From Candidatus Nomurabacteria bacterium (GTDB lineage Bacteria > Patescibacteriota > Minisyncoccia > Phycocordibacterales > UBA9973), in contig CP064973.1 in NCBI GenBank assembly GCA_016699365.1, positions 195-64,194 on the forward strand: a stretch of DNA of 64,000 nt, written 5' to 3'. The notes under the pieces are model-generated. The model was not told the origin of the DNA and ran no database searches. It saw only the letters and a list, made by a program, of their open reading frames with translations. This document shows, in pieces, positions 5,310-33,580 of this stretch. The translations under genes and the position numbers were made by a program. Each line of letters begins with the position of its first letter. Positions within the stretch are counted from its first letter, which is position 1.

Positions 5310-7550
5310 ATGAATCCTGAAAATAACATCCCCGAAAAACTACTAAAACCCTACGAACACAAAGAGACAGAATCTCGAATATATAAAGCTTGGGAAGAGA
5401 GTGGTTTTTTCAATCCAGACAAAATGATTGAAACTGGACTCACCTCTCCCGATGCAAAACCTTTCACAATAGTTATGCCTCCACCAAACGTTACTGGAGT
5501 ACTACACATGGGTCACGGACTCATGCTTACAGTTCAGGATATTATGATCCGCTACAAAAGAATGAACGGATTTAGAACTCTCTGGATTCCTGGAACTGAC
5601 CACGCAGCTATTGCAACACAATCAAAAGTAGAAAAAGAAATTCAAAAAAAAGAAGGTCTTTCTCGCCACGATCTAGGGCGTGATGAACTACTCCGAAGAG
5701 TAAATGAATTTGCTCAAGATTCTCACGACACTATAGTTTCCCAAGTTAGAAAAATGGGTTCCTCTTGTGACTGGTCACGAGAAGCTTTTACTCTTGATTC
5801 AACTCGAAACAAGGCGGTAAACACTGTTTTCAAAATGATGTATGATGACGGACTCATATATCGTGGACACAGAATAGTAAACTGGGATCCAAAAGGACAG
5901 ACAACTATTGCTGATGATGAAATAGTTTATGAGGAACGTAAAGGAAAACTTTATACTTTCAAATATTCTCCTGACTTCCCTATTGCAATATCTACAACTC
6001 GCCCAGAAACAAAAGTTGGAGACGTTGCCGTTGCTGTACATCCAAGTGATGAACGATACAAAGAATATGTTGGAAAAACTTTCGAGAACATAGAATTTTG
6101 TGGTGCAAAAATAAATATAAAAGTTATTGCAGACGAATCTGTAGAAAAAGATTTTGGAACTGGAGCGCTCGGAGTAACCCCTGCTCACTCTATGATCGAC
6201 TGGGAAATAGCCGACCGCCACGACCTACCTCGCCCACAAGTTATAAACGAATACGCAAAAATGGTAACAGAAAGCGAACTTCTAAATGGAAAGAAAGTTG
6301 CCGAAGCGCGCGAAATTGTTGTGTCTTGGCTACGCGAAAACAATCTTTTAGAAAAAGAAGAAGATGTAAACCAAAATATCGGAACAGCAGAGCGAACTGG
6401 TGGAGTAGTAGAACCACTTCCAAAACTTCAATGGTTTATAAACGTAAATAAACCAATCCCTGCGCGAGAAAATAAAACACTAAAAGAGATTATGCGTGAA
6501 GCAGTCGCAGGCGGTGGTGTAAAAATAATCCCAGAGTATTTCGACAAGACATATTTCAACTGGATCGACAATCTACGCGACTGGTGCATATCGAGACAAA
6601 TCTGGTACGGACACAGAGTGCCTGTTTGGTACCCTGTTGGTTCTGATTTAGCAGAGAGTTTGCAAAATAGTAAAAGTATCACACATCCAACATTTATTGT
6701 TTCTTCTGAAAATCCTGGAAAAACTGATGGTACAGAAAATAAATGGGTACAAGATCCCGACACTCTCGACACATGGTTCTCTTCTGGTATGTGGACTTTC
6801 TCAACTCTCGGATGGCCTGAAAAAACAAAAGATCTAGAAATTTATCATCCGACAGATGTTCTAGAGACTGGATATGAAATCCTATTCTTCTGGGTTGCTC
6901 GTATGATCATGATGACAGGATATACACTCAACACTATTCCATTCCACACAGTTTACCTAAACGGAACTGTTCGTGACGGACAAGGACGCAAGATGAGTAA
7001 GTCTCTTGGAAATGGAATAGATCCAGTAGAAGTTGCTGATAAATTTGGTGCAGATGCTGGTCGTATGGCTCTCATATTCGGATCAGCTCCAGGTATAGAC
7101 TCACGTATAAGCGACGACAAAATCAAAGGTCAAAGAAACTTCGCAAACAAAGTGTGGAATATTGCTAGATTTGTTCTATCTAATACAAATACCGAAGACA
7201 TAAGTGAAGTACTAAATGACCAAGATAAAAAAATAAGAGAAGAATTCGATATCCTGGTTACAGAGATCTCAAAAGAGATGGATGACCACCTGTATCATGT
7301 TAGCGCTGAAAAAATATATGGATATGTATGGAATACATTTGCTAGTACTCTAATCGAAGAGAGTAAAACAATATTGTCTGGAGATGACGAACAAGCAAAA
7401 AAATCTCGCAAAGTCCTACTTCGTTTAATTTTTACTGATATACTAAAAATACTACATCCATTTATGCCATATGTAACAGAGGAAATCTGGAACCTAATTG
7501 GAGATAGTAAAAACATGTTAATGGTAGAAAAGTGGCCAAGTAAAAAATAA
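5310..7550 (+). CDS. valS: Valine--tRNA ligase (short form lacking the C-terminal coiled coil)
   Basis: PPPNVTGVLHMGHG (HIGH motif), KMSKSLGN (KMSKS motif), editing and anticodon-binding regions. Confidence 0.9.
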   Translation: MNPENNIPEKLLKPYEHKETESRIYKAWEESGFFNPDKMIETGLTSPDAKPFTIVMPPPNVTGVLHMGHGLMLTVQDIMIRYKRMNGFRTLWIPGTDHAAIATQSKVEKEIQKKEGLSRHDLGRDELLRRVNEFAQDSHDTIVSQVRKMGSSCDWSREAFTLDSTRNKAVNTVFKMMYDDGLIYRGHRIVNWDPKGQTTIADDEIVYEERKGKLYTFKYSPDFPIAISTTRPETKVGDVAVAVHPSDERYKEYVGKTFENIEFCGAKINIKVIADESVEKDFGTGALGVTPAHSMIDWEIADRHDLPRPQVINEYAKMVTESELLNGKKVAEAREIVVSWLRENNLLEKEEDVNQNIGTAERTGGVVEPLPKLQWFINVNKPIPARENKTLKEIMREAVAGGGVKIIPEYFDKTYFNWIDNLRDWCISRQIWYGHRVPVWYPVGSDLAESLQNSKSITHPTFIVSSENPGKTDGTENKWVQDPDTLDTWFSSGMWTFSTLGWPEKTKDLEIYHPTDVLETGYEILFFWVARMIMMTGYTLNTIPFHTVYLNGTVRDGQGRKMSKSLGNGIDPVEVADKFGADAGRMALIFGSAPGIDSRISDDKIKGQRNFANKVWNIARFVLSNTNTEDISEVLNDQDKKIREEFDILVTEISKEMDDHLYHVSAEKIYGYVWNTFASTLIEESKTILSGDDEQAKKSRKVLLRLIFTDILKILHPFMPYVTEEIWNLIGDSKNMLMVEKWPSKK

Positions 7551-12717: not shown

Positions 12718-14397
12718 TTATAAATCGGATTGTTCTGGGGCAATAATTGGAGCCTTCCAAAACTTTGCTGAAACAGAGTTTGTAAGAGCTCGGAGCTCCT
12801 GACTTTTAAGTAAATAGAGCACCAAGACCCCCGCTGCAATACCAATTACCCCAGACACTAGCCCTTGGAGCAAGATACCCCAAAATGTTTCCATTGAAAA
12901 AATAGTATCGAAGATATCTAGACACTTGTACGCAACAAAACCCATAAAAAATGCTCCGGCGAAACTCTGTAAAAATACACGTGAAATTTTAATCGTAGCC
13001 TTTTTGCAAAAATCCTTCCTGAACAGATGCCAGAGTAAAGTGAAGTTTAGAATTGTTCCCAAAGAATAAGCCAGTGGTAACATCAATACCTGTGTCTTGT
13101 CTAAGCCTTCTACTCGCATAAGATTTTCCACAAAATATCTAAATGCTACGTGTGAATTAAAAATATTTATAAGCACATGAGCAATAATAATAGTAAAAAG
13201 GGCTGAAAAAATATTTATCAATAGGGGCTTCTTGGTATTCCCCGCTGCGTAATATCCTCTAACAAATAAATGCACCAAACTCTGTGCCACGAGTGATATA
13301 GAAAACAAAGCTAGGGCTGCAGCAGTAATACGTGTATCTGTCCAAGAAAAAGATCCCGTTCCAAGTATTACACGTACTATTTGAGCACGTAGAACTATGA
13401 ACAAAAATACGATTGGCAAAGACCAGAAAATAATCTTCTTTGAAGCTTCTAGTATATGGTCAACAAAAAGAGTTTGTTCGTTTGTCGTAAAGAATCTTAC
13501 GAGGGTTGGAAAAGACGCAACTGAATAGCTTATACCGATAATCCCTATTGGAACAGACTGAAGATTATAAGAGAAAGTGAACATGGAAATTGCGCCATCG
13601 CCCAGTTTTGAAATCATAGCCACCAAAACAAGAATTGATATGTTGTTTAAAGACAATCCCAATGTTCTCGGCAAAGAGAGTGTCACAACACTTCTTATGT
13701 CAGACCAATTTATATGTATAGAAAATTTTGGGAAAAAAGTATGAGAAAGTAACACAGGAAGTTGTATTCCCAAATGCAACAATCCTCCCAACACTACACC
13801 CAAAGCTAGGCCATTTACTCCAAAAGTTGGGTATAAGAAAAATATCCCTAAAAGAATTCCTAGATTGTAAAAAACAGGAGAAAGCGAATACACGAAAAAT
13901 TTATTAAACATTTGAGTTACTGAACCCAAAATATTTGAAGCACCTAAAAGTATAGGAGACAGTAGCATTATTCTACTAACCTCTATTAATTTATCTAAAC
14001 TTTCTGGACCAAAGCCTGGTGCAATTATAGGAGCTATGCGTGGCATAAAAATAGCAATAAGGACACTTGCAAAAGCTATTACTACAAGAAAAGATGTAAA
14101 AACATCACTAAAAAATTTCCTAGCTTTAATATATGTTGGATCATCCATGCGTTCCAGTAAAAAAGGTAAGAGGATTGTAACTGAAGCAAGTGAGGCAATT
14201 GATATATATAGAAAATCAGGTATTCGAAAAGCAGCATAATATACATCCAGGTTTGTGGACGGACCGAGATAATGCGCCAGTGCCCTATCTCTAAACAATC
14301 CTAAGATTTGAGACAAAAAAGCAAAAGCACCCAATATCAATGCGGCTTCATTTACAGCAAATTCTTTATTTAATAGAGAGAAAATCTTCTTAACCAT
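12718..14397 (-). CDS. murJ: Lipid II flippase MurJ/MviN
   Basis: Conserved N-terminus LGLFRDRALAHYLGPS, 14-TM MOP-superfamily architecture. Confidence 0.85.
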   Translation of the reverse strand: MVKKIFSLLNKEFAVNEAALILGAFAFLSQILGLFRDRALAHYLGPSTNLDVYYAAFRIPDFLYISIASLASVTILLPFLLERMDDPTYIKARKFFSDVFTSFLVVIAFASVLIAIFMPRIAPIIAPGFGPESLDKLIEVSRIMLLSPILLGASNILGSVTQMFNKFFVYSLSPVFYNLGILLGIFFLYPTFGVNGLALGVVLGGLLHLGIQLPVLLSHTFFPKFSIHINWSDIRSVVTLSLPRTLGLSLNNISILVLVAMISKLGDGAISMFTFSYNLQSVPIGIIGISYSVASFPTLVRFFTTNEQTLFVDHILEASKKIIFWSLPIVFLFIVLRAQIVRVILGTGSFSWTDTRITAAALALFSISLVAQSLVHLFVRGYYAAGNTKKPLLINIFSALFTIIIAHVLINIFNSHVAFRYFVENLMRVEGLDKTQVLMLPLAYSLGTILNFTLLWHLFRKDFCKKATIKISRVFLQSFAGAFFMGFVAYKCLDIFDTIFSMETFWGILLQGLVSGVIGIAAGVLVLYLLKSQELRALTNSVSAKFWKAPIIAPEQSDL

Positions 14398-14401
14398 AGA
14401 C

Positions 14402-16675
14402 CTATTGTGATTCTGCGCTATCTATCGTATCTATTTCTAAATTTTCAGTATAAGCGTCTATGTTTTGCCCTTTTTCTAATTTCTCCAATATACTTTCTAT
14501 CTGTTTGTTTCCAGGAATTTTATTATTGATATCTTTGAAAACTACAATTGCATCTTTTTCTCTTCCAAGTTTTTCGTATACAACACCAAGTAAATATTCA
14601 TATTCTATATTTGAAGGATCGGCAAACAAAGCCTGAACGATTCTGTTCAAAGCTTCATCGTTATCTCCCTCTTCCAGATAGATCTGAGAAGTTAGAAACA
14701 AAGCCTCACCATAATTTTGCTTAAGAGCAAGCGCTTTATCTATATTGATCTTAGCTTGTGGAATATTATCATTTGCAAGTTCTAGTCGAGCGAGTAGAAG
14801 ATATATAGAAGGAGAATTTGGATTCAAAACTAACGCACTTTCATAAGATGCTTTTGCACTCTCATAAGAACCTTCTATATCAAGAGGTACGACACCTTTG
14901 TATATATTTCCAAGCAATACCCAATTGAAAAAATTGGTTCTGTCTTTGGAAATTGCCAGCTTTGCACTATTTTCAGCATTCAAGAAATAACTCTGAAATT
15001 GAGACCCTACGAATTCGTCGGACAACCCAGAGGAATTCATTAATATATTTAATTTTGAATAATAGTAATTGGCCAAATTCTGATAGGCAAAGTCTGCTTT
15101 CGAATTATTTCTAGCAGATGACACAAAAGACTTTTCAGCTTTATTGAAAGTATCTACGTTTTGAGTCCTGCGAAAACCTTGGTCAGTATATGCCACAGCT
15201 ACAAATTTTTTAGTATATATATAACCCATAGATAAAGTGGCTATAAACAAGACAGATATGGTCAGTATTGAGAAAAAGCTTTTTCTAGGATCTTTAAGAA
15301 AAGATATTTTATATTGACCGATAAGTTTACGCTCTTCTAGAGTGTTTATAAAAATACCTATCATTACAAAAGTTAAGAATATAATAGTTATGTTCGGTAC
15401 AGAAATCCATAAAAAAATCAAAAAGTATGCAGCTAGTATAAATGAACTCAATAAAAAGAAATTTGCCATTGGCTCTACGGAGAATGAAAAAACTTTTTTT
15501 ATACCAAAGTAGAAAAAATACACCAAGAAAAATAGTAAGGATAAAAATACAAGCGGACCTGATGTAACTAAAAATGTTGGAATAAAACCAAATCCTTGAG
15601 AAAAGTTTGTATCCCAAAATGTTGTCTGCAACACTTTTACAGGACGAAACTGCGCCCAAGCATTTTCAAAACGATTGGCCCCAAAACCAAAAACTGGATC
15701 TTGAGCCAAAACCTGTTTAGCCACCTCAAAAGTAGTACTAACAGAGGGCCTGAATTCTACATTGTAAACGCCCAAATTGTTGGAAAAAATCTGACCAACT
15801 AAAGGATTTGCTAACACAAACACAAGAGATACCATAACCACACTAAATGAAATAGCAGGGAAAAATCTTTTTTCTAAAATATTATTGGTATCTTGTGTGG
15901 CATTTCCATTTCTAATAACTGTCATTGCGTATATGAAAATTATCAAAGAAAACAGACCGACCAATACCCAAGCGCTTATAGAGTTTATAAGCATTAAGAA
16001 AAATAAACAGGCTCCAATTAAAACCAGTGTAAATATTTTTTGAACCTTACCAATTTTGAGCAATTCAACCATAGCAACAGCAAGTAATATAATTGCTCCT
16101 AAAAATACAGAGAAATCACTCCATTTGCCGATAAGATTTATTGTCTTAGATGAAAAAATACCTATACCTAAAGTATTTGGTCCAACAATAATTAAAACTA
16201 GCTGCCATAATATAGAGATTATTGATACTCCCAATATTAAAAAATATACTGATGATTTTCTACTTGGACCACCGATAAGCACACTACCTAAAAATAGAGT
16301 GAGGAACATCAACAAAATACTACTAGTAGTACCTATATCAAAACCCGTTCCTATAAAAGAGACGTTCGGTGCAACAGAAAAAAGAGAAGACAATACAGTA
16401 AAAAATAGTGTGCCTAGAAATGCAAAAATCAGAGGGGTTTTTGGTAAAGAAATATTCCCGTCTAACAATTTAGCAAGCAACCAAAAAGTAAAGGAAGTGC
16501 ATATACCTATAGATATTAGATAACTTTTTGATATATCAAAAGCTATAGTTGTAAACGGTATAAAAAAAATCGGTACAAGCGCAATGGTTATCAAATATGC
16601 GTAATATGAAATTTTTGCAAATAATTTTGCTTTACTTGTTTCTACTGAGCGGATGCTTGTATTTATAGTATCCAT
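14402..16675 (-). CDS. Large polytopic membrane protein with C-terminal TPR repeats (O-antigen ligase/polymerase-like)
   Basis: Over 10 TM helices followed by multiple 34-residue TPR-like repeats. Confidence 0.45.
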   Translation of the reverse strand: MDTINTSIRSVETSKAKLFAKISYYAYLITIALVPIFFIPFTTIAFDISKSYLISIGICTSFTFWLLAKLLDGNISLPKTPLIFAFLGTLFFTVLSSLFSVAPNVSFIGTGFDIGTTSSILLMFLTLFLGSVLIGGPSRKSSVYFLILGVSIISILWQLVLIIVGPNTLGIGIFSSKTINLIGKWSDFSVFLGAIILLAVAMVELLKIGKVQKIFTLVLIGACLFFLMLINSISAWVLVGLFSLIIFIYAMTVIRNGNATQDTNNILEKRFFPAISFSVVMVSLVFVLANPLVGQIFSNNLGVYNVEFRPSVSTTFEVAKQVLAQDPVFGFGANRFENAWAQFRPVKVLQTTFWDTNFSQGFGFIPTFLVTSGPLVFLSLLFFLVYFFYFGIKKVFSFSVEPMANFFLLSSFILAAYFLIFLWISVPNITIIFLTFVMIGIFINTLEERKLIGQYKISFLKDPRKSFFSILTISVLFIATLSMGYIYTKKFVAVAYTDQGFRRTQNVDTFNKAEKSFVSSARNNSKADFAYQNLANYYYSKLNILMNSSGLSDEFVGSQFQSYFLNAENSAKLAISKDRTNFFNWVLLGNIYKGVVPLDIEGSYESAKASYESALVLNPNSPSIYLLLARLELANDNIPQAKINIDKALALKQNYGEALFLTSQIYLEEGDNDEALNRIVQALFADPSNIEYEYLLGVVYEKLGREKDAIVVFKDINNKIPGNKQIESILEKLEKGQNIDAYTENLEIDTIDSAESQ

Positions 16676-16728
16676 GCGGTTAATTATAGTACAAATCTAG
16701 CAAAAAGACCCAGGTGTAATATGGGGAT

Positions 16729-19602
16729 TTATATAACAAAGTTTATTATCCTACCTGGTACATATATCACGCGTTTTATATCTTTGTCTGAAATCCAATT
16801 TTTAACTTTTTCATTGTCTTTTGCCATAGACACAGCTTCATCTTCAGATATGCCGCTTGGCATAGTTATTTCTGCACGAACTTTTCCATTTACCTGAATT
16901 ATTATCAGATTTTCATTGTCTACTATTTTTGAATCATCCCATTTTGGCCAATCGGTAAGGTGGATAGAAGAACTCTCCCCCATTTCGTTCCACAACTCTT
17001 CAGCTATGTGTGGAGCAAAAGGTGCAAGAAGTTTCAATAAAATTTTATAATCATCTTTTGATATTGAATCTTTCTTGTCCAAATCATTTATTAATATCAT
17101 CATTTGAGATATTGCAGTATTGAATTTGAATTCTTCTATATCTTCTGTAATTTTCTTTATAACTTTATGTAGAAGTGTTCCTATATCATTTGCATTGTCT
17201 GAAATTTTTTCTTTTAATTTCCATACACGCTCAATAAATCTTCGCACCCCTACAACCCCATTTGGATCCCATGGATAATTTGTAGTAATACCATAGGGAC
17301 CCATGAATGCTAGGTAAAGTCTAACAGTGTCTGCACCAAGACGCTCCACTATTTCGTCTGGATTTATAACGTTTCCACGACTCTTACTCATCTTCTCTCC
17401 GTCAGGCCCTAGTATAAGCCCACGATTGCGACGTACTGTATAAGCTTCACTGTCTTTTACAAGACCCAGGTCATATAGTGCCTTTGTCCAAAAACGAGAA
17501 TACAGCAAGTGCATAGTTGTATGCTCTGCTCCTCCCATATACAAATCTATAGGCATCCATGCATCCATACTGTCCATGCTCGCAAATTCTTTTTCATTTT
17601 TGTTGTCTAGGTATCTATAGAAGTACCATGAAGAATCTACGAAGGTATCCATAGTTTCTACTTCTGGTTTCCAGCCAGCACCAAATATTTTTTCTGTTCG
17701 TTCAAATAGTTCCTTGCTTCTTGCAAGTGGTGCAGTCCCGTCTGGTGTATGATCTACATCTGTCGGAAGAATCCAAGGCAAGTGTTCGTCTGGTACAGGA
17801 TGTGCATTACCTTCCGGATCATATACTATCGGGATCGGACAACCCCAATACCGCTGACGACTAATACCCCAATCGCGAAGCCGATAAGTCTTTAGTATTT
17901 TTCCACCAACAAATTCTGTGATTTTTATACGAGCTTCTTCGGACCTTAGATTACTGAAATCTCCAGAATCTACTAACACTCCATATGAAGTAATGCATTC
18001 TTCTGTATTGTTTCTAAAAACTCTCCACGGATAACGCATATCTTCACGCATAATAAAATCATGAACTTTTTCGCCATCTACCCATACAAAATCCGCTATA
18101 GATTTTTCTTCTGGAGATACTTCGTCTCTATCTAAATCAGCAAGTTTTACATGCACAATTTTATAATGTGCAAATCGATTGTGTTTTTTAAATACATGAT
18201 AGAAAAGTCCATGAGAGGATTTGTCGAAAACTTTGATTGATGCAATATTTTTGTATCCAGTTTCTTCTGGTATTTCCCGACGCGCTGTTTCTTCTGTAGT
18301 GTGACCCTCTTCTATCCCACCAGTTACAAAACCTTTCCAGTCTACTTGTTTCCAAACTGCACACAAAAATTTATCTTCGGTTGGATGCTCAATAATACAA
18401 ACTATATTTTCTCTTGAAACTTCTTCTATCCCGTCTTGATATGCATCTTTGCCAGGCCCAGTGTTCACATCAATCGGCTCAATCACTTGCCGCATCGACA
18501 AATTGTATTTCTTTGCAAATTCAAAATCTCTCTCATCGTGTGCAGGTACTGCCATAACAGCACCAGTCCCATAACCCGCGAGTACATAGTCTGCAATCCA
18601 GACCGGAACCCATTCTCCGTTTGCAGGATTTATTGCCATAACACCCCCAACCTGAACACCCGTTTTGTTTTTTGATTGTTGACGATCAAGCTCTGATTTC
18701 TTTTTTGTATCTGCAATATATTTTTCTACCTCTTCTAAGTTCCAGATCTTTTCTTTTATTTTTGAAATTAATTCATGTTCAGGAGAGAGAACTATATAAG
18801 TAACTCCAAAAAGCGTGTCTGCGCGTGTTGTAAAAACTGAAACCTTTTCAAAAGGCTCACTTCTACCATTCGGCCATTCAGTCGGGGTATTTGCAATACC
18901 AAATTCAATTTCACTTCCCTCGCTTCTGCTAATCCAGTTTTTTTGTGATTCTTTGATATTCTCGGGCCATGCGAGTTTGTCTAAATCGTCGATTAGTCTA
19001 TCTGCGTATTTTGTAATACGAAGCATCCATTGTGGTTGGTCACGCTGAATTACTTCACTTCCACAACGCTCACATTTATTGTCTACGACTTGCTCGTTTG
19101 CAAGTATAGTCTGATCTTTCGGACACCAATTCACTTTTGTTATCGCTCTGTACACAAGATCATTTTTCAAAAACTGATTGAATATCCACTGTGTCCATCT
19201 GTAGTACTCTGGATCACAAGTTACGACTTCTCTGTCCCATGGAAAACTAGCGCCCATAGTGCGGAGTTGAGCGCGCATCTTTTCCATTTGTTCGTATGTC
19301 CAAACTTTAGGATCAGCACCGAGCTTGATCGCAGCGTTTTCTGCAGGAAGACCAAAGGCATCGAAACCCATCGGATAGAGCACGTTGAATCCTTGCATTC
19401 TCTTATATCTCGCAAAAATATCCGGCACGGAAAAAGCGTACCAGTGTCCTACATGTAGATTGCCCGAAGGATATGAGAACTCTACGAGTTGGTAAAAATT
19501 TTCCTTACCAGGCATTTGATTTGGGACACTGTAAATCCCGTCAGCTTCCCATTTATCCTGCCATTTTTTCTCTATATCTTTGTGGTTGTAATTTTCAGCC
19601 AT
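16729..19602 (-). CDS. leuS: Leucine--tRNA ligase carrying an inserted Nudix hydrolase domain (approx. nt 17998-18418)
   Basis: HVGH (HIGH), KMSKS, AHDERDFEFAKKY editing-domain motif and YRLRDWGISRQRYWG. About 150 extra residues between these contain the Nudix box GGIEEGHTTEETARREIPEETGY (REUxEExGU matched exactly). Confidence 0.9.
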   Translation of the reverse strand: MAENYNHKDIEKKWQDKWEADGIYSVPNQMPGKENFYQLVEFSYPSGNLHVGHWYAFSVPDIFARYKRMQGFNVLYPMGFDAFGLPAENAAIKLGADPKVWTYEQMEKMRAQLRTMGASFPWDREVVTCDPEYYRWTQWIFNQFLKNDLVYRAITKVNWCPKDQTILANEQVVDNKCERCGSEVIQRDQPQWMLRITKYADRLIDDLDKLAWPENIKESQKNWISRSEGSEIEFGIANTPTEWPNGRSEPFEKVSVFTTRADTLFGVTYIVLSPEHELISKIKEKIWNLEEVEKYIADTKKKSELDRQQSKNKTGVQVGGVMAINPANGEWVPVWIADYVLAGYGTGAVMAVPAHDERDFEFAKKYNLSMRQVIEPIDVNTGPGKDAYQDGIEEVSRENIVCIIEHPTEDKFLCAVWKQVDWKGFVTGGIEEGHTTEETARREIPEETGYKNIASIKVFDKSSHGLFYHVFKKHNRFAHYKIVHVKLADLDRDEVSPEEKSIADFVWVDGEKVHDFIMREDMRYPWRVFRNNTEECITSYGVLVDSGDFSNLRSEEARIKITEFVGGKILKTYRLRDWGISRQRYWGCPIPIVYDPEGNAHPVPDEHLPWILPTDVDHTPDGTAPLARSKELFERTEKIFGAGWKPEVETMDTFVDSSWYFYRYLDNKNEKEFASMDSMDAWMPIDLYMGGAEHTTMHLLYSRFWTKALYDLGLVKDSEAYTVRRNRGLILGPDGEKMSKSRGNVINPDEIVERLGADTVRLYLAFMGPYGITTNYPWDPNGVVGVRRFIERVWKLKEKISDNANDIGTLLHKVIKKITEDIEEFKFNTAISQMMILINDLDKKDSISKDDYKILLKLLAPFAPHIAEELWNEMGESSSIHLTDWPKWDDSKIVDNENLIIIQVNGKVRAEITMPSGISEDEAVSMAKDNEKVKNWISDKDIKRVIYVPGRIINFVI

Positions 19603-19659
19603 TCGTCTATAAAATATATCAGAAAAATATATTTTATGCGATTTTAATTTAATAGAGAG

Positions 19660-19907: not shown

Positions 19908-19936
19908 AAAAAACCCTCGAAATTTCGAGGGTTTTA
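19908..19936 (+). terminator. Rho-independent terminator (ccctcgaaatttcgaggg + TTTT)
   Basis: Perfect 7-bp GC-rich stem plus T-run. Confidence 0.6.
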
Positions 19937-20856: not shown

Positions 20857-21273
20857 CTAATCGAAATTTTCTACAATATCATTAAAAACATTACTCTCAT
20901 TTTTATCATCGTCAAAAGAATTATAATTATCTAAGATTTCTTCTCCAATTTGAATATCTCTTACCGCAACTGTAACCACCTCTTCTTCATTGTCTCTATA
21001 TTCCGATAAAGCATTCGGATCGTCTGAGTGATTGAAATATTTACCATTATCGGAAGACAAGCAATATAAGCCACTCTTCTTACTTCTCCAGCAATATTTG
21101 TATGCATAAATTTGGAGCAAATCTGGAAAGTTTAAAATCTGCTCTCGTGTAAACTTTTGATCAAAACCTGGAGTAAACCTCCAAATTTCAGTTCCCTTTG
21201 GAATAAACTCATCTGCAAAAAGACCGATCCCGTGAATTTTGCTTTGAGCAATCTTATTTTTAACAAGCAACAT
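20857..21273 (-). CDS. SET-domain protein (putative lysine methyltransferase)
   Basis: GIGLFA...KGTEI, YFNHSDDPN (NHSC-like motif), EEIL.NY post-SET-like end. Confidence 0.7.
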   Translation of the reverse strand: MLLVKNKIAQSKIHGIGLFADEFIPKGTEIWRFTPGFDQKFTREQILNFPDLLQIYAYKYCWRSKKSGLYCLSSDNGKYFNHSDDPNALSEYRDNEEEVVTVAVRDIQIGEEILDNYNSFDDDKNESNVFNDIVENFD

Positions 21274-24968: not shown

Positions 24969-26594
24969 TCAATCAGTAATTCCCAAAAACCTCAGGATAT
25001 CGGTCGTAGACATAGACTTAAAAGTCTCCAGGCTCACTTTCCAGCGATTACCAGGGAGCATCTTTACATTGCTGTAAGGAACTCCGACATGACCTGTCTT
25101 GTCTATTACAACAAGACCACTTTCAACGATCTGATGGATGAGTCTTTTGAGCATCCTTCTCTCCTCTACCGGATCTTTTTCCGTTCTTACTATAACCTCC
25201 TTTTTATTGGAGATTATATCCTCAAGCCTGTCGATAGCTTTGTGAGCTTCGTCTTCAGTCAAACCTTTCATCAATCTCGCAATTCGAGCTATTGAAGTAG
25301 GTTTTTCTTCTGCTTCTAGTTTTGTCTGATTTTGCAAAACCGTCCTCACAACAAGCATGTCAGTTTTTTCTCCCTCTTTATGAATACTTTTCTGTGAATC
25401 AGGGATCTCACGAGGCATGATTTCATCAGAAACCGGATTTAATGACGGCAACATAAGGTGTTTTTTGTTTGCTGTGACATACTTGTACCCAGCATCCATC
25501 AGCTTTAATGCAAGGTCCTCATAATTGGCTCCGCGTTCAATAGTTATGTACCACATTTTATCATTCACATAAAACCTGTGTGGTTTTAAACCGAGCGCTC
25601 CGAGAAATCTGCCTTTCAAATATCCTGGCTCTGATCTTTCGATTAGCTCAAAGTATGTTATAGACTTTTCTACGAATCTATAGTTAATAATTAGGATACT
25701 CTGGGCATTCTCGTTTACGAACGAGAGTCTAAAGCCGCTTTCTTGTAAACGCTTCTTGAATTTATCGAGCAAGGTAATCCTGTCTGACTTGAAGTTCAAA
25801 ACCATCCTCATATTATTATCATCAGAAATCGGTTTTGACTCAAGGTTCCCATTTTTTCGGTTAAAGAAAATTCCTTGCTCTTCAAGTAAACACTCAAGAG
25901 CCTTTTTGCGTATTGGACGAAAAGTCGCTGAAACTGGAATACGAAGCTTATCGCAATCTACGATAACTTCACCAAAGTTATCGTTCTTTTCCACCAGAAA
26001 AGCACTGCCATCACCATTGATAAGACTACAAAACAATGTAAGTTCTGTGAACTTTACACTATCTGCTCTTTTTGTTAAATCAAAAGATAGACGGAGTGTT
26101 ACCTGATCGCAATCGCAAACATTCTCTTTTGGTATATAAAATACCTTCAAAAGATCTGACGCAACTTCGGGAATTTCGAGCACCTGGTTAACATCAGAAG
26201 AACCAACCTCTTCTATCTCCACTTCTTCAGCAGCTACAGTTTCGACTGATTCATCTTGAATTTCCGGTAAAATAATTTCATCGAGAATAGTATCTTCTTC
26301 TTTTGAAGAAACTACTTTCATTTTATTTACCTCCGGATTTTCAAAATATCCAATCACTTCAATCATTGCATTGTGTTCTTCCTTGTATTGGAGCATCAAA
26401 TCATCGCAAGCCTTCTTTACTCTTGCCGCGTCTTTGAAGTTATATTTAACCTTCAAACTCACCATGTTTGTCACTGGGTTTTTAACCATAGAAAGGTCAA
26501 CATTTGAAAACGTTTTTCGAATCCGTTTTTTTATGCTCCCAATCTTCTCTTCATTAAGTAAAGTTGGTTGAACTTGTGTATTTGTATTTGCCAT
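24969..26594 (-). CDS. Hypothetical 541-aa protein upstream of the ParB-like gene
   Basis: Long ORF with an acidic N-terminal stretch; no family recognised by eye. Confidence 0.5.
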   Translation of the reverse strand: MANTNTQVQPTLLNEEKIGSIKKRIRKTFSNVDLSMVKNPVTNMVSLKVKYNFKDAARVKKACDDLMLQYKEEHNAMIEVIGYFENPEVNKMKVVSSKEEDTILDEIILPEIQDESVETVAAEEVEIEEVGSSDVNQVLEIPEVASDLLKVFYIPKENVCDCDQVTLRLSFDLTKRADSVKFTELTLFCSLINGDGSAFLVEKNDNFGEVIVDCDKLRIPVSATFRPIRKKALECLLEEQGIFFNRKNGNLESKPISDDNNMRMVLNFKSDRITLLDKFKKRLQESGFRLSFVNENAQSILIINYRFVEKSITYFELIERSEPGYLKGRFLGALGLKPHRFYVNDKMWYITIERGANYEDLALKLMDAGYKYVTANKKHLMLPSLNPVSDEIMPREIPDSQKSIHKEGEKTDMLVVRTVLQNQTKLEAEEKPTSIARIARLMKGLTEDEAHKAIDRLEDIISNKKEVIVRTEKDPVEERRMLKRLIHQIVESGLVVIDKTGHVGVPYSNVKMLPGNRWKVSLETFKSMSTTDILRFLGITD

Positions 26595-31558: not shown

Positions 31559-33580
31559 TTACTCTAATACTTTTCTCAATATATCTTCTGGGATTTCTCT
31601 AGGCTTTTTTGAAACTGTAGTGTTCGCCGGATCTTTCGATACAGGCACTGTATCAGATGATGAATCATTGCTCTCGATTGAACTATTTACCATTCTAGGT
31701 AATACAACTTGTTTTTGTGTCGTAGAAATAGGAGCTGGTGTAGGTGTAGCTTCTACTTTTTTAACAGGAGGAGGTGGTGGAGGTGTGTTGTTTTTGTTTT
31801 CGGCAATAACTTGCGCAAGAACATTTTTTAATGCATTTCTATTTTCGACAGTGGGTTCTTTTTGAGGTATAGGTTTCTTTTTCAAGCCCTCCAGAGATAT
31901 TGGATTTTTAGACACAGCTCCAATATTTGGATTTACAATAGTAGTCTGATTTTGATTTTCTTTTGGCAGATCATCTGTATCTATACGACTTACTAAATCC
32001 TTCAACCCAGAAAAAGGCTTCTTCTCTTCTGGTCTTCTATCAGCTGGTGGGTAGCTGGATTTTTGAACTAAATTAGATGGTTTTGGAGAAGCAGGTTTAT
32101 TGAAAGCTGGTCTTGAAGTACTTTGAACTGGAGCAGTTTGAGGTCTATTGAAAACTGGCTTTGGAGAAAAAGTGCTTGTATTTTGATTTTGACTAAAATT
32201 CTGACTACTACGATTATTTTCAATCGCACCGTTCACACTCGGCCGAGGAGCTCCATCAACAGGAAAGTCTCTTTTTGGTTTTTCAATTACGACTGGTGCA
32301 TGCCATTCCTTTATATTTTCTTCAATATTAGATCTTGGACGTGCGTTGGATTTTCTAGAATTTTCAATTATCTCTTTGGTATAAGATATTGCTGGTTTTT
32401 CAATTGGAGGCATTGAGAGCGCAGAGAAAGGTTTTGAGCCTATACCATTTATCATTAGTCTCAAGTATATCTGGATAAAACCTAAGTTGACTATATCTTC
32501 TGCTGTAAAAACAGGAGAGAATTCTTTTTCAAAAACTTCTGCATCCGTAGCACCGACTCTAAAAATAACCATAGTACCTACGTTTCCAAAAACAGCTGCG
32601 CGAACCTCGTCAGACATCTGCTCTATATACTGGTGAGCGATTGTGAGACTAAGTTTATATTTACGAGCCTCAGACAAAATATCGGCAAAACTATCACTAG
32701 CAAAAGACTGAAACTCGTCAACATAAAAATAGAAGTGTGGAAGTTTTTTTAGTGCATCTGGGCTCGCATCAGCGCGTGACATGGCCGCCAAGTATATCTT
32801 GGTAATAAGCATACCTCCGAGTAGTGCAGCATTTTGTTCACCGACACGTCCTTTTGAGAGGTTCATTATCAATATTTTCTTTTCATCCATTAATTTACGA
32901 ATATCAAAAGACGAATGTGGTTGGCCTATGATGTTACGAATTATTGGGTTTGCGGTAAATTGACCTATTTTGTTTTGAATTGCAGCACCAGCTTCTTGCA
33001 TATAACGATCACCGTATTTTGCAAATTCATCTACCCAAAAAGATTTCACTGATGGATCAGATATATTTTCAACAACTTTTTTTCGAAAATCTTTATCAGC
33101 AAGCATTCTGTTAACTCCAAGTAATGTTGATTCTGGATATTCAAGTAGAGCAAGGAGTATATTGTTCAATATGTATTCCATACGTGCACTCCAAGCGTCC
33201 ACCCAAATCTTTTTGAAAGAACTCATGAGTCCACTTGCCACTAGATGGCGCTTGTCTGCACCAATATCTTCCATAACATTGAAGGATATCGGATAGTCTA
33301 TATCAAAAGGAGCAAAATATACCACATCTTTTAAACGACTCTCTGGAACATAATCAAGCAATTTTTCTGCTGTTCCTCCGTGTGGATCTATAAAAGCCAT
33401 ACCTTCACCGTTTTGGATATCTTGGATAGCCATATTTTCAAGCAGAGTAGACTTTCCCATACCCGTCTTTCCTATAACATACATATGACGAGCTCTGTCT
33501 GTAGCCTTAATACCAAAACGCGTTCGTTTGTTACGATAATCTGTTTCTCCGAAATAAGTTATTTTATCTTCAGGATTCAT
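31559..33580 (-). CDS. VirD4/TraG/TraD-like type IV coupling-protein ATPase with a long disordered Pro/Ser/Asn-rich C-terminal tail
   Basis: Walker A VIGKTGMGKST, Walker B FYFYVDEFQSF, FtsK/HerA-like core; C-terminal roughly 250 aa are low complexity. Confidence 0.55.
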   Translation of the reverse strand: MNPEDKITYFGETDYRNKRTRFGIKATDRARHMYVIGKTGMGKSTLLENMAIQDIQNGEGMAFIDPHGGTAEKLLDYVPESRLKDVVYFAPFDIDYPISFNVMEDIGADKRHLVASGLMSSFKKIWVDAWSARMEYILNNILLALLEYPESTLLGVNRMLADKDFRKKVVENISDPSVKSFWVDEFAKYGDRYMQEAGAAIQNKIGQFTANPIIRNIIGQPHSSFDIRKLMDEKKILIMNLSKGRVGEQNAALLGGMLITKIYLAAMSRADASPDALKKLPHFYFYVDEFQSFASDSFADILSEARKYKLSLTIAHQYIEQMSDEVRAAVFGNVGTMVIFRVGATDAEVFEKEFSPVFTAEDIVNLGFIQIYLRLMINGIGSKPFSALSMPPIEKPAISYTKEIIENSRKSNARPRSNIEENIKEWHAPVVIEKPKRDFPVDGAPRPSVNGAIENNRSSQNFSQNQNTSTFSPKPVFNRPQTAPVQSTSRPAFNKPASPKPSNLVQKSSYPPADRRPEEKKPFSGLKDLVSRIDTDDLPKENQNQTTIVNPNIGAVSKNPISLEGLKKKPIPQKEPTVENRNALKNVLAQVIAENKNNTPPPPPPVKKVEATPTPAPISTTQKQVVLPRMVNSSIESNDSSSDTVPVSKDPANTTVSKKPREIPEDILRKVLE

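Follow-up and report, generated by a model that had tools for sequence, protein, structure and literature searches.

We report a second, apparently active enzyme nested inside the editing domain of a leucyl-tRNA synthetase (LeuRS), a kind of domain viewed as a conserved, single-purpose proofreader. The protein of 957 amino acids (aa) is encoded by leuS on a stretch of 64,000 nucleotides (nt) from a Candidatus Nomurabacteria bacterium (contig CP064973.1; hereafter ‘the window’). As a first-pass annotation of the window had proposed, a complete Nudix-fold domain lies in frame within this LeuRS, a reading borne out by a Pfam match above cut-off, an AlphaFold 2 (AF2) model of the domain and Foldseek comparisons. 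The surprising part is the multi-site, multi-copy and cassette-like behavior of this module among related proteins.

A Pfam search of the protein placed PF00293 (NUDIX) at aa 413-516 (E=7.5e-12; 45.8 bits against a gathering cut-off of 21.1). Alignment to the LeuRS of Thermus thermophilus (1H3N) paired residues 3-376 with Thermus 2-365 and residues 535-734 with Thermus 375-581; ~158 residues (aa 377-534) stand in place of a nine-residue Thermus loop (366-374). The three sequence motifs quoted in the first-pass annotation were found where it had put them, namely AHDERDFEFAKKYNL at aa 354-368, the Nudix box GGIEEGHTTEETARREIPEETGY at aa 428-450 and YRLRDWGISRQRYWG at aa 573-587. Its extra segment of about 150 residues stands as well, with a different span: the module occupies positions 18001-18474 rather than 17998-18418, the earlier limits having lost ~56 nt at the N-terminal end, and of the 204 residues between the first and third motifs ~158 are extra. 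That the insert follows the end of the CP1 editing domain, at AHDERD, had to be corrected. The CP1 profile PF13603 covers aa 221-381 (E=5e-57) and is broken off at position 147 of 185, whereas in the relative P0030, which has no module at this site, the match extends to position 183, placing the module within a CP1 loop. (P-numbers denote related proteins and L-numbers the loci or contigs compared.)

The Nudix box reads G428-x5-H434-x7-R442-E443-I444-P-E446-E447-T-G449-Y450. Compared with the consensus GX5EX7REUXEEXGU, G428, R442, E443, I444, E446, E447 and G449 match, while position 7 is H434 and the final U is a tyrosine; the earlier description of a canonical REUxEExG with histidine for the first box glutamate was accurate. 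Across the family, position 7 varies between E, D, Q and H, and the last box position is Y or F. Modeled alone, the domain adopted a Nudix fold with a predicted local distance difference test (pLDDT) score of 92.4, and in a model of the full-length protein the means of 10-residue blocks ranged from 91 to 98 over most of the module. We regard the anatomy of the module and the reality of the feature as almost certain.

The host protein is a bacterial-type LeuRS. It scored 930.3 bits against the NCBIfam equivalog TIGR00396 (leuS_bact; cut-off 548.4), in two stretches split by the insert, and Pfam recovered a class I synthetase core, the PF13603 editing domain and an anticodon-binding domain besides PF00293. 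The full-length AF2 model, built from 86 homologues, reached an overall pLDDT of 87 and matched E. coli LeuRS (5ON2/4AQ7) in Foldseek with a TM score of 0.82. Judging by its conserved synthetic and editing sites (Table 1), the host LeuRS looks fully functional. A short leucyl-specific insertion had been expected at the place of the module; the leucine-specific domain of canonical LeuRS belongs elsewhere, ahead of KMSKS, and this protein lacks it (17380-17400 region), residues 734 to 738 pairing with Thermus 581 to 638 in the 1H3N alignment. The NCBI entry P0025, one residue apart (I569M), bears the title ‘MAG: class I tRNA ligase family protein [Candidatus Pacebacteria bacterium]’; a near-identical protein thus carries only this general name although it passes the leuS equivalog.

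The possibility of a chimeric assembly, considered with the original observation, or of a frameshift that joined a Nudix gene to leuS was dispelled at the level of assemblies. The same gene, flanked by the same genes, is present on contigs of GCA_018061905.1, ERZ2227181, ERZ2269104 and SRR11088448; the window differs from these four other assemblies at 2 nt out of 2874, with no difference within the insert. Moreover, the frame is unbroken, CP1 picks up again past the insert, and about 70 of the 120 best orthologues have a like architecture according to precomputed Pfam annotation of PF00293, which also speaks against the implied one-off. A search for direct or inverted repeats around 18001-18474 returned none bracketing the insert, only short chance matches in sequence rich in glutamate codons. 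The sole hint of an artefact is the GC content of the insert, at 0.33-0.35 below that of its flanks (0.40-0.44), and we consider the probability of an artefact negligible. An intein, a self-splicing insertion or a mobile element was likewise rejected: Pfam found no Hint or intein family in the 957-aa protein, the junctions (VIEP|IDVN and EECITS|YGVL) have no splice-junction residues, no repeats flank the insert, and the window module contains no endonuclease.

With respect to its origin, BLASTP with the insert alone returned free-standing Nudix proteins of ~170 aa, at 47-57% identity over ~90% of the query. In a multiple alignment the module was 44-54% identical to stand-alone Paceibacteria Nudix proteins and collinear with practically the whole of them, sharing the N-terminal lead that is specific to this family (D[IV]N..G..D.Y.EG) as well as a number of motifs beyond the Nudix box that do not vary. 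On the evidence of these alignments, the module derives from a free-standing ~170-aa Nudix gene family of Paceibacteria. Foldseek searches with the domain model retrieved NudI/YfaO, 2AZW, the diadenosine tetraphosphate (Ap4A) hydrolases 3I7U and 4MPO, NUDX1, RppH and NudC, all at 12-20% identity; the closest match was an uncharacterized MutT/Nudix protein, and NudI-type NTPases also scored well. The module represents a distinct, uncharacterized Nudix subfamily.

To map where such modules reside, the 120 best LeuRS relatives, from Paceibacteria (Pacebacteria, Nomurabacteria, Paceibacterota), were placed on an insert-free reference with MAFFT. Proteins without an inserted module measure ~760-860 aa. 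Two insertion hot spots emerged within CP1, termed site A and site B, the window module being at site B. Guests at site A comprise Nudix (a single copy or a pair), ASCH, alpha/beta ‘Ser_hydrolase’, DUF559/restriction endonuclease-like, weakly nucleotidyltransferase (NTase)-like domains, or domains of no known kind, as judged from Pfam matches of representatives; site B receives Nudix or Pfam-less modules of ~100-137 aa. A single LeuRS, P0027 (1237 aa), combines an alpha/beta-hydrolase, an ASCH and a Nudix domain. Non-Nudix domains nested at site A were seen among P0027, P0029, P0031, P0038, P0043, P0053, P0054, P0114, P0132, P0134 and P0137, and Pfam-less modules of ~98-137 aa, of at least two sequence types, in P0079, P0089, P0090, P0094, P0095 and P0108 (site B) and P0093 (site A). 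The same Nudix family also occupies a third LeuRS loop, site C, which we take to be the ZN2 region of T. thermophilus LeuRS, in P0146, P0149 and P0150 and at loci L017, L019, L024, L026, L035 and L065.

Beyond these relatives, a phmmer search of 1.84 billion cluster representatives returned 316 clusters (at 50% identity) of the Nudix family at E<=1e-3. Among the best 150 of the 316, 99 were LeuRS or LeuRS fragments, 42 were short proteins and five were archaeal-type prolyl-tRNA synthetase (ProRS) or fragments of it; ten of the LeuRS clusters held two or three Nudix copies. In ProRS the module follows the anticodon-binding domain, and in the full-length P0250 (643 aa) it lies between that domain and ProRS-C_1. 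The ProRS fragments with the same Nudix family are P0193, P0180, P0285 and P0278, making this class II enzyme a second synthetase host. The valyl-tRNA synthetase (ValRS) of the same window (5310-7550, plus strand) carries no inserted module; it has an editing insertion of its own. With 746 aa, this ValRS stops near position 698 of the valS model, which has 860 positions, and the C-terminal part of the model is absent from it. At site B of the insert-free LeuRS P0060, a short stretch (VGPNAIKEGSDLFKK) is reminiscent of the lead at the N-terminus of the Nudix module, possibly as a scar left by secondary deletion. The record titled ‘Nanoarchaeota archaeon UBA10106’ (L059; DUFK01000016.1) also holds a LeuRS of bacterial type in which a Nudix module is embedded, probably a binning or labeling problem.

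Comparing modules with their hosts revealed the two to be decoupled. P0027 is 89% identical to the window protein in its scaffold and 36% in its module; the corresponding values are 85% and 52% for P0026 and 76% and 37% for P0028, and overall module identity drops to 26-40% in LeuRS whose scaffolds are 66-89% identical, with identity along the protein falling sharply at the module borders. The site-B modules of the closest LeuRS relatives are not the nearest kin of the window module. Its nearest kin are site-A modules of more distant LeuRS (59-63% identity; scaffolds only 63-73% identical), a site-C module (58%) and stand-alone proteins (up to 54%). When clustered by pairwise identity, a cruder measure than a likelihood tree, modules from sites A, B and C and free-standing copies intermixed. 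At the nucleotide level, compared over window positions 13738-19626, the contig of P0027 (L067; SRR17347195) is 95% identical to window positions 13738-17937, has no detectable similarity to 17938-18459, nearly exactly the cassette, and returns to 76-88% upstream; it holds a Nudix cassette unrelated to that of the window and two extra modules in CP1. The decoupling of scaffold and module, the sharp borders and this mosaic leuS between near-identical genomes together indicate that the module has been replaced as a cassette by recombination, beyond mere divergence.

The module is probably catalytically active. Within 153 embedded copies, the Nudix box residues E16 (152 of 153), E19 (149 of 153), E20 and G22 (153 of 153 each) are retained. 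That the metal-ligand glutamates are near-invariant while the module diverges to 26-40% identity points to selection on catalysis, as opposed to decay or a purely structural role. An enzyme-free reading, in which the Nudix fold is reused as a structural or a tRNA- or protein-binding appendage, could draw on the histidine at the first box glutamate of the window copy, on the variability of position 7 and R15 in the subgroup, and on the existence of non-enzymatic Nudix domains (PMC5389931); set against the conservation of the three ligands and G22, it seems very improbable.

A functional coupling of the module to LeuRS is suggested by gene neighborhoods as well as by the distribution of hosts. 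In the subgroup of stand-alone genes nearest to the embedded copies, the Nudix gene lies directly upstream of leuS: the gene for P0005 (L011, L012) is 19 nt ahead of an insert-free, 809-aa leuS, that for P0016 (L016) is immediately upstream of leuS, and that for P0006 (L013, L014) is next to a downstream leuS with a divergent site-B Nudix of its own. A stand-alone Nudix gene adjoins leuS, again upstream, at two GTDB loci, L023 and L027. The bias of the family to LeuRS, its presence in three LeuRS loops, the multiple copies, the stand-alone genes upstream of leuS and the insert-free ValRS together make coupling reasonably likely, in our judgment. The association between the Nudix family and LeuRS appears to be ancient and recurrent, considering gene adjacency, the three loops and the ProRS host. 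At L013 (4001-7774), a free and an embedded Nudix domain coincide at one locus, where a run of N breaks the gene in that record.

Dinucleoside polyphosphates such as Ap4A arise at synthetases through attack of ATP or a different NTP on aminoacyl-AMP, and synthetases are the classical source of Ap4A. On the explanation that we favor, the LeuRS would be bifunctional, with the Nudix module acting in cis with the synthetase as a Mg2+-dependent nucleotide pyrophosphatase. Its substrate could be an adenylate-derived dinucleoside polyphosphate (Ap4A, Ap3A or ApnN) or, as with RppH-type enzymes, a 5′-polyphosphate or capped RNA end; hydrolysis would give ATP and AMP back beside the producing enzyme. 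Leads to such a substrate are weak: Ap4A hydrolases (3I7U, 4MPO) and RppH are among the Foldseek matches, RppH models are the best NCBIfam similarities, well under their cut-offs, and Y468 is in the X-loop, 18 residues past the Nudix box. A tyrosine in the X-loop ~16-18 residues downstream of the box has been tied to ApnA activity (Dunn 1999, cited in Srouji et al., PMC5389931). We consider an ApnA- or RppH-like substrate possible, if doubtful. The explanation in its entirety—an active pyrophosphatase, coupled to LeuRS, with such a substrate—is the best we can offer and is held tentatively, falling a little short of an even call.

Several observations weigh against this explanation. In model organisms the strongest producers of Ap4A do not, to our knowledge, include LeuRS. 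Over the family, the residue at +18 varies between Y, F and W and is not strictly tyrosine. No substrate could be assigned at family threshold, RppH and NudB models yielding 16-30 bits against cut-offs of 103-259; specifically, the RppH equivalog models (PRK00714), with cut-offs of 116-259, gave the window protein 21.9 bits at best and the stand-alone P0012 29.7 bits. Among PDB sequences, a profile search favored the RNA decapping enzymes NUDT12, Dcp2 and AvrM14, at a marginal E of ~1e-4. Stand-alone homologues are unlinked to leuS at 36 of 38 GTDB loci and in four of seven contig look-ups. All-against-all clustering of the neighbors at the 38 GTDB loci identified no conserved neighbor of the stand-alone Nudix genes, the largest clusters being spurious antisense open reading frames (ORFs). 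Finally, a simple clean-up function in housekeeping would not lead one to expect cassette turnover or a variety of unrelated modules sharing the same loops. A conserved operon partner of the stand-alone genes was dismissed as a candidate after the empty neighbor clustering; leuS is abutted only by genes of the subgroup most similar to the embedded copies. The first-pass annotation had put forward Ap4A hydrolysis, which accords with the weak leads from structure and motif, and also the hydrolysis of aminoacyl-adenylates, for which we know of no precedent among Nudix enzymes and which none of our observations supports.

The tolerance of CP1 loops for many unrelated domains argues for permissiveness, and the module might be a passenger: an active housekeeping pyrophosphatase, serving for instance in nucleotide-pool sanitation, that is parked in a permissive loop of an essential, well-expressed protein of a streamlined genome and has no link to leucylation or editing. 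The scattered positions and unconserved neighbors of most stand-alone homologues fit this scenario, as do the uncharacterized MutT/Nudix protein and the NudI-type NTPases among the fold matches. Against it, LeuRS accounts for two of every three top-ranking clusters of the family, and ProRS, another synthetase, for most of the handful of long hosts besides; the three LeuRS sites that took insertions of the same Nudix family, the stand-alone genes abutting leuS and the ValRS without a module speak against it too. We deem a mere passenger rather unlikely.

The turnover of the module raises a different prospect, namely that CP1 loops hold exchangeable hydrolase modules (Nudix variants, alpha/beta-hydrolase, ASCH, endonuclease-like and NTase-like) kept by diversifying selection as variable counter-measures. 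Located where the tRNA CCA end is handled, such modules would inactivate nucleotide-type LeuRS inhibitors that mimic aminoacyl-adenylates, or would restore, by repair or deprotection, acceptor ends of tRNA that toxins or phage effectors have modified. This would accommodate the decoupling of module and scaffold, with site-A copies closer to the window module than those of P0027 and P0026, the unrelated cassette and two extra modules of L067 beside a near-identical flank, the mixing of sites and stand-alone copies within module clusters, the up to three Nudix paralogues in some LeuRS and the unrelated enzyme modules in the same loops; an isoleucyl-tRNA synthetase (IleRS) with an embedded GNAT domain (NCBIfam NF040702) offers a parallel. 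Searches of defense resources lent it no support: no module matched a defense model in PADLOC-DB, where the Nudix module hit only the generic PDC-S07 (E=0.005) and the ASCH, alpha/beta-hydrolase, DUF559 and Pfam-less modules had no match, and PHROGs returned generic Nudix families only. Toxin, immunity or phage genes do not adjoin leuS, no evidence points to any specific toxin or inhibitor, and the fast turnover could instead stem from weak constraint and recombination in a permissive loop. We judge the counter-measure scenario unlikely. Its widest form is more speculative still and, to us, quite improbable: the proofreading domain of Paceibacteria LeuRS would serve as a hypervariable docking platform for enzyme cassettes (several Nudix lineages, alpha/beta-hydrolase, ASCH, endonuclease-like, NTase-like and Pfam-less) that are shuffled between strains by recombination and, working at the acceptor end of the tRNA or on molecules resembling adenylates, counter toxins, inhibitors or phage effectors directed at tRNA-Leu or LeuRS—a conflict system in the translation apparatus.

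Several known systems resemble the window protein or its module in part. Canonical bacterial LeuRS (T. thermophilus 1H3N/2BYT; E. coli 4AQ7/4ARC) share the class I Rossmann core, the HIGH and KMSKS signatures, CP1 with its threonine-rich motif and aspartate, and the anticodon-binding and C-terminal domains; unlike them, the window protein has a 158-aa Nudix domain in a CP1 loop and no leucine-specific domain, and loops A, B and C serve as landing sites in its relatives. Nudix ApnA hydrolases and RNA pyrophosphohydrolases (RppH/NudH, Aquifex 3I7U, Chlamydia CT771 4MPO, Thermus Ndx1, M. tuberculosis Rv2985) have in common with the module the Nudix fold, the REUxEExG metal-binding helix and an aromatic X-loop residue at ~+18, and they count among its best structural neighbors. 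The IleRS of NF040702, with its embedded N-acetyltransferase, likewise joins a class Ia synthetase to an unrelated small-molecule enzyme domain, but differs in synthetase, guest fold and chemistry. Class I synthetases are members of the HIGH superfamily. A nucleotidyltransferase of that superfamily is joined to a Nudix domain in the NadM-type nicotinamide mononucleotide (NMN) adenylyltransferase-Nudix fusions of jumbo phages, in which the Nudix domain hydrolyses the adenylylated product in a make-and-break pair (PMC7824862); there, the domains are arranged end to end rather than nested in an editing domain, and the substrate (NAD or ADP-ribose) is known. Inteins and homing-endonuclease insertions, too, sit in frame in conserved housekeeping proteins, are patchy in close relatives and produce sharp identity breaks, but the LeuRS module remains part of the mature ORF, its catalytic residues conserved, and has no Hint domain, splice residues, endonuclease or flanking repeats.

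The first-pass annotation knew of no description of the fusion, and we found no account of a Nudix domain in any tRNA synthetase in the full-text literature searched, which left most subscription journals outside its coverage; a 2017 review of the Nudix clan never mentions tRNA synthetases (PMC5389931). Sequences of the fusion and their automatic Pfam hits are already public. The gene adjacency, the three sites, the multiple copies and the ProRS host suggest that a Nudix pyrophosphatase and aminoacylation are functionally linked in a way not studied before. If the module does hydrolyze Ap4A-type products, it would provide organisms of minimal metabolism with a built-in control of signaling nucleotides made by the synthetase. 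For a housekeeping gene that is essential, it is unusual that cassettes are swapped among leuS genes of near identity and that the same loops take in unrelated hydrolase modules. This provides a natural setting in which domain insertion, and possibly a molecular conflict around tRNA charging, can be studied.

Table 1 Features of the leuS gene and its product, with positions in the window.
Feature	Residues (aa)	Position	Strand	Basis or remark
leuS coding sequence, bacterial-type LeuRS hosting the Nudix module	957 in total	16729..19602	minus	ORF list
HIGH signature, here HVGH	50-53	19444..19455	minus	H50 and H53 invariant in 120 relatives
CP1 editing domain, part before the insert	221-376	18475..18942	minus	PF13603
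Site A loop of CP1, between the first two CP1 strands just before VFTTRADT, empty here	236-255	18838..18897	minus	MAFFT
Threonine-rich editing motif VFTTRADTLFG	256-266	18805..18837	minus	T258, T259, R260 and T263 invariant in 120/120 LeuRS
Editing motif AHDERD	354-359	18526..18543	minus	D356, R358 and D359 in 120/120; H355 in 119/120
Nested Nudix module: N-terminal lead (IDVNTGPGKDAYQDG...), Nudix fold, C-terminal helix	377-534	18001..18474	minus	
Nudix box GGIEEGHTTEETARREIPEETGY, G428..Y450	428-450	18253..18321	minus	predicted metal ligands E443, E446, E447
CP1 editing domain, part after the insert, ECITSYGVLVDSGDFSNLRSEEARIKITEFVGGKILKT	535-572	17887..18000	minus	aligned from T. thermophilus LeuRS 375 on
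Site C, empty here	630-644	17671..17715	minus	break in LeuRS hidden Markov model at positions 487-501, mapped onto window protein
KMSKS signature	737-741	17380..17394	minus	K737, S739 and K740 invariant in 120 relatives

As for the surroundings of leuS, an Rfam search of the window for regulatory RNA near the gene found only six tRNAs. A palindrome, AAAACCCTCGAAATTTCGAGGGTTTTTTT (19908-19935, minus strand), follows an 85-aa ORF upstream of leuS and is kept in L067 and L022; it was discarded as a candidate leuS regulatory element, as it resembles an unremarkable intrinsic terminator serving the ORF before it. Farther away, an ORF of 541 aa (24969-26594, minus strand) had no Pfam match at E<=1e-5, and one of 673 aa (31559-33580, minus strand) is similar to type IV secretion coupling proteins of the TrwB/TraG type, here in a small genome of the Paceibacteria. 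Between ychF and leuS, a small SET-domain protein is encoded (20857-21273, minus strand), an arrangement found alike on sibling contigs.

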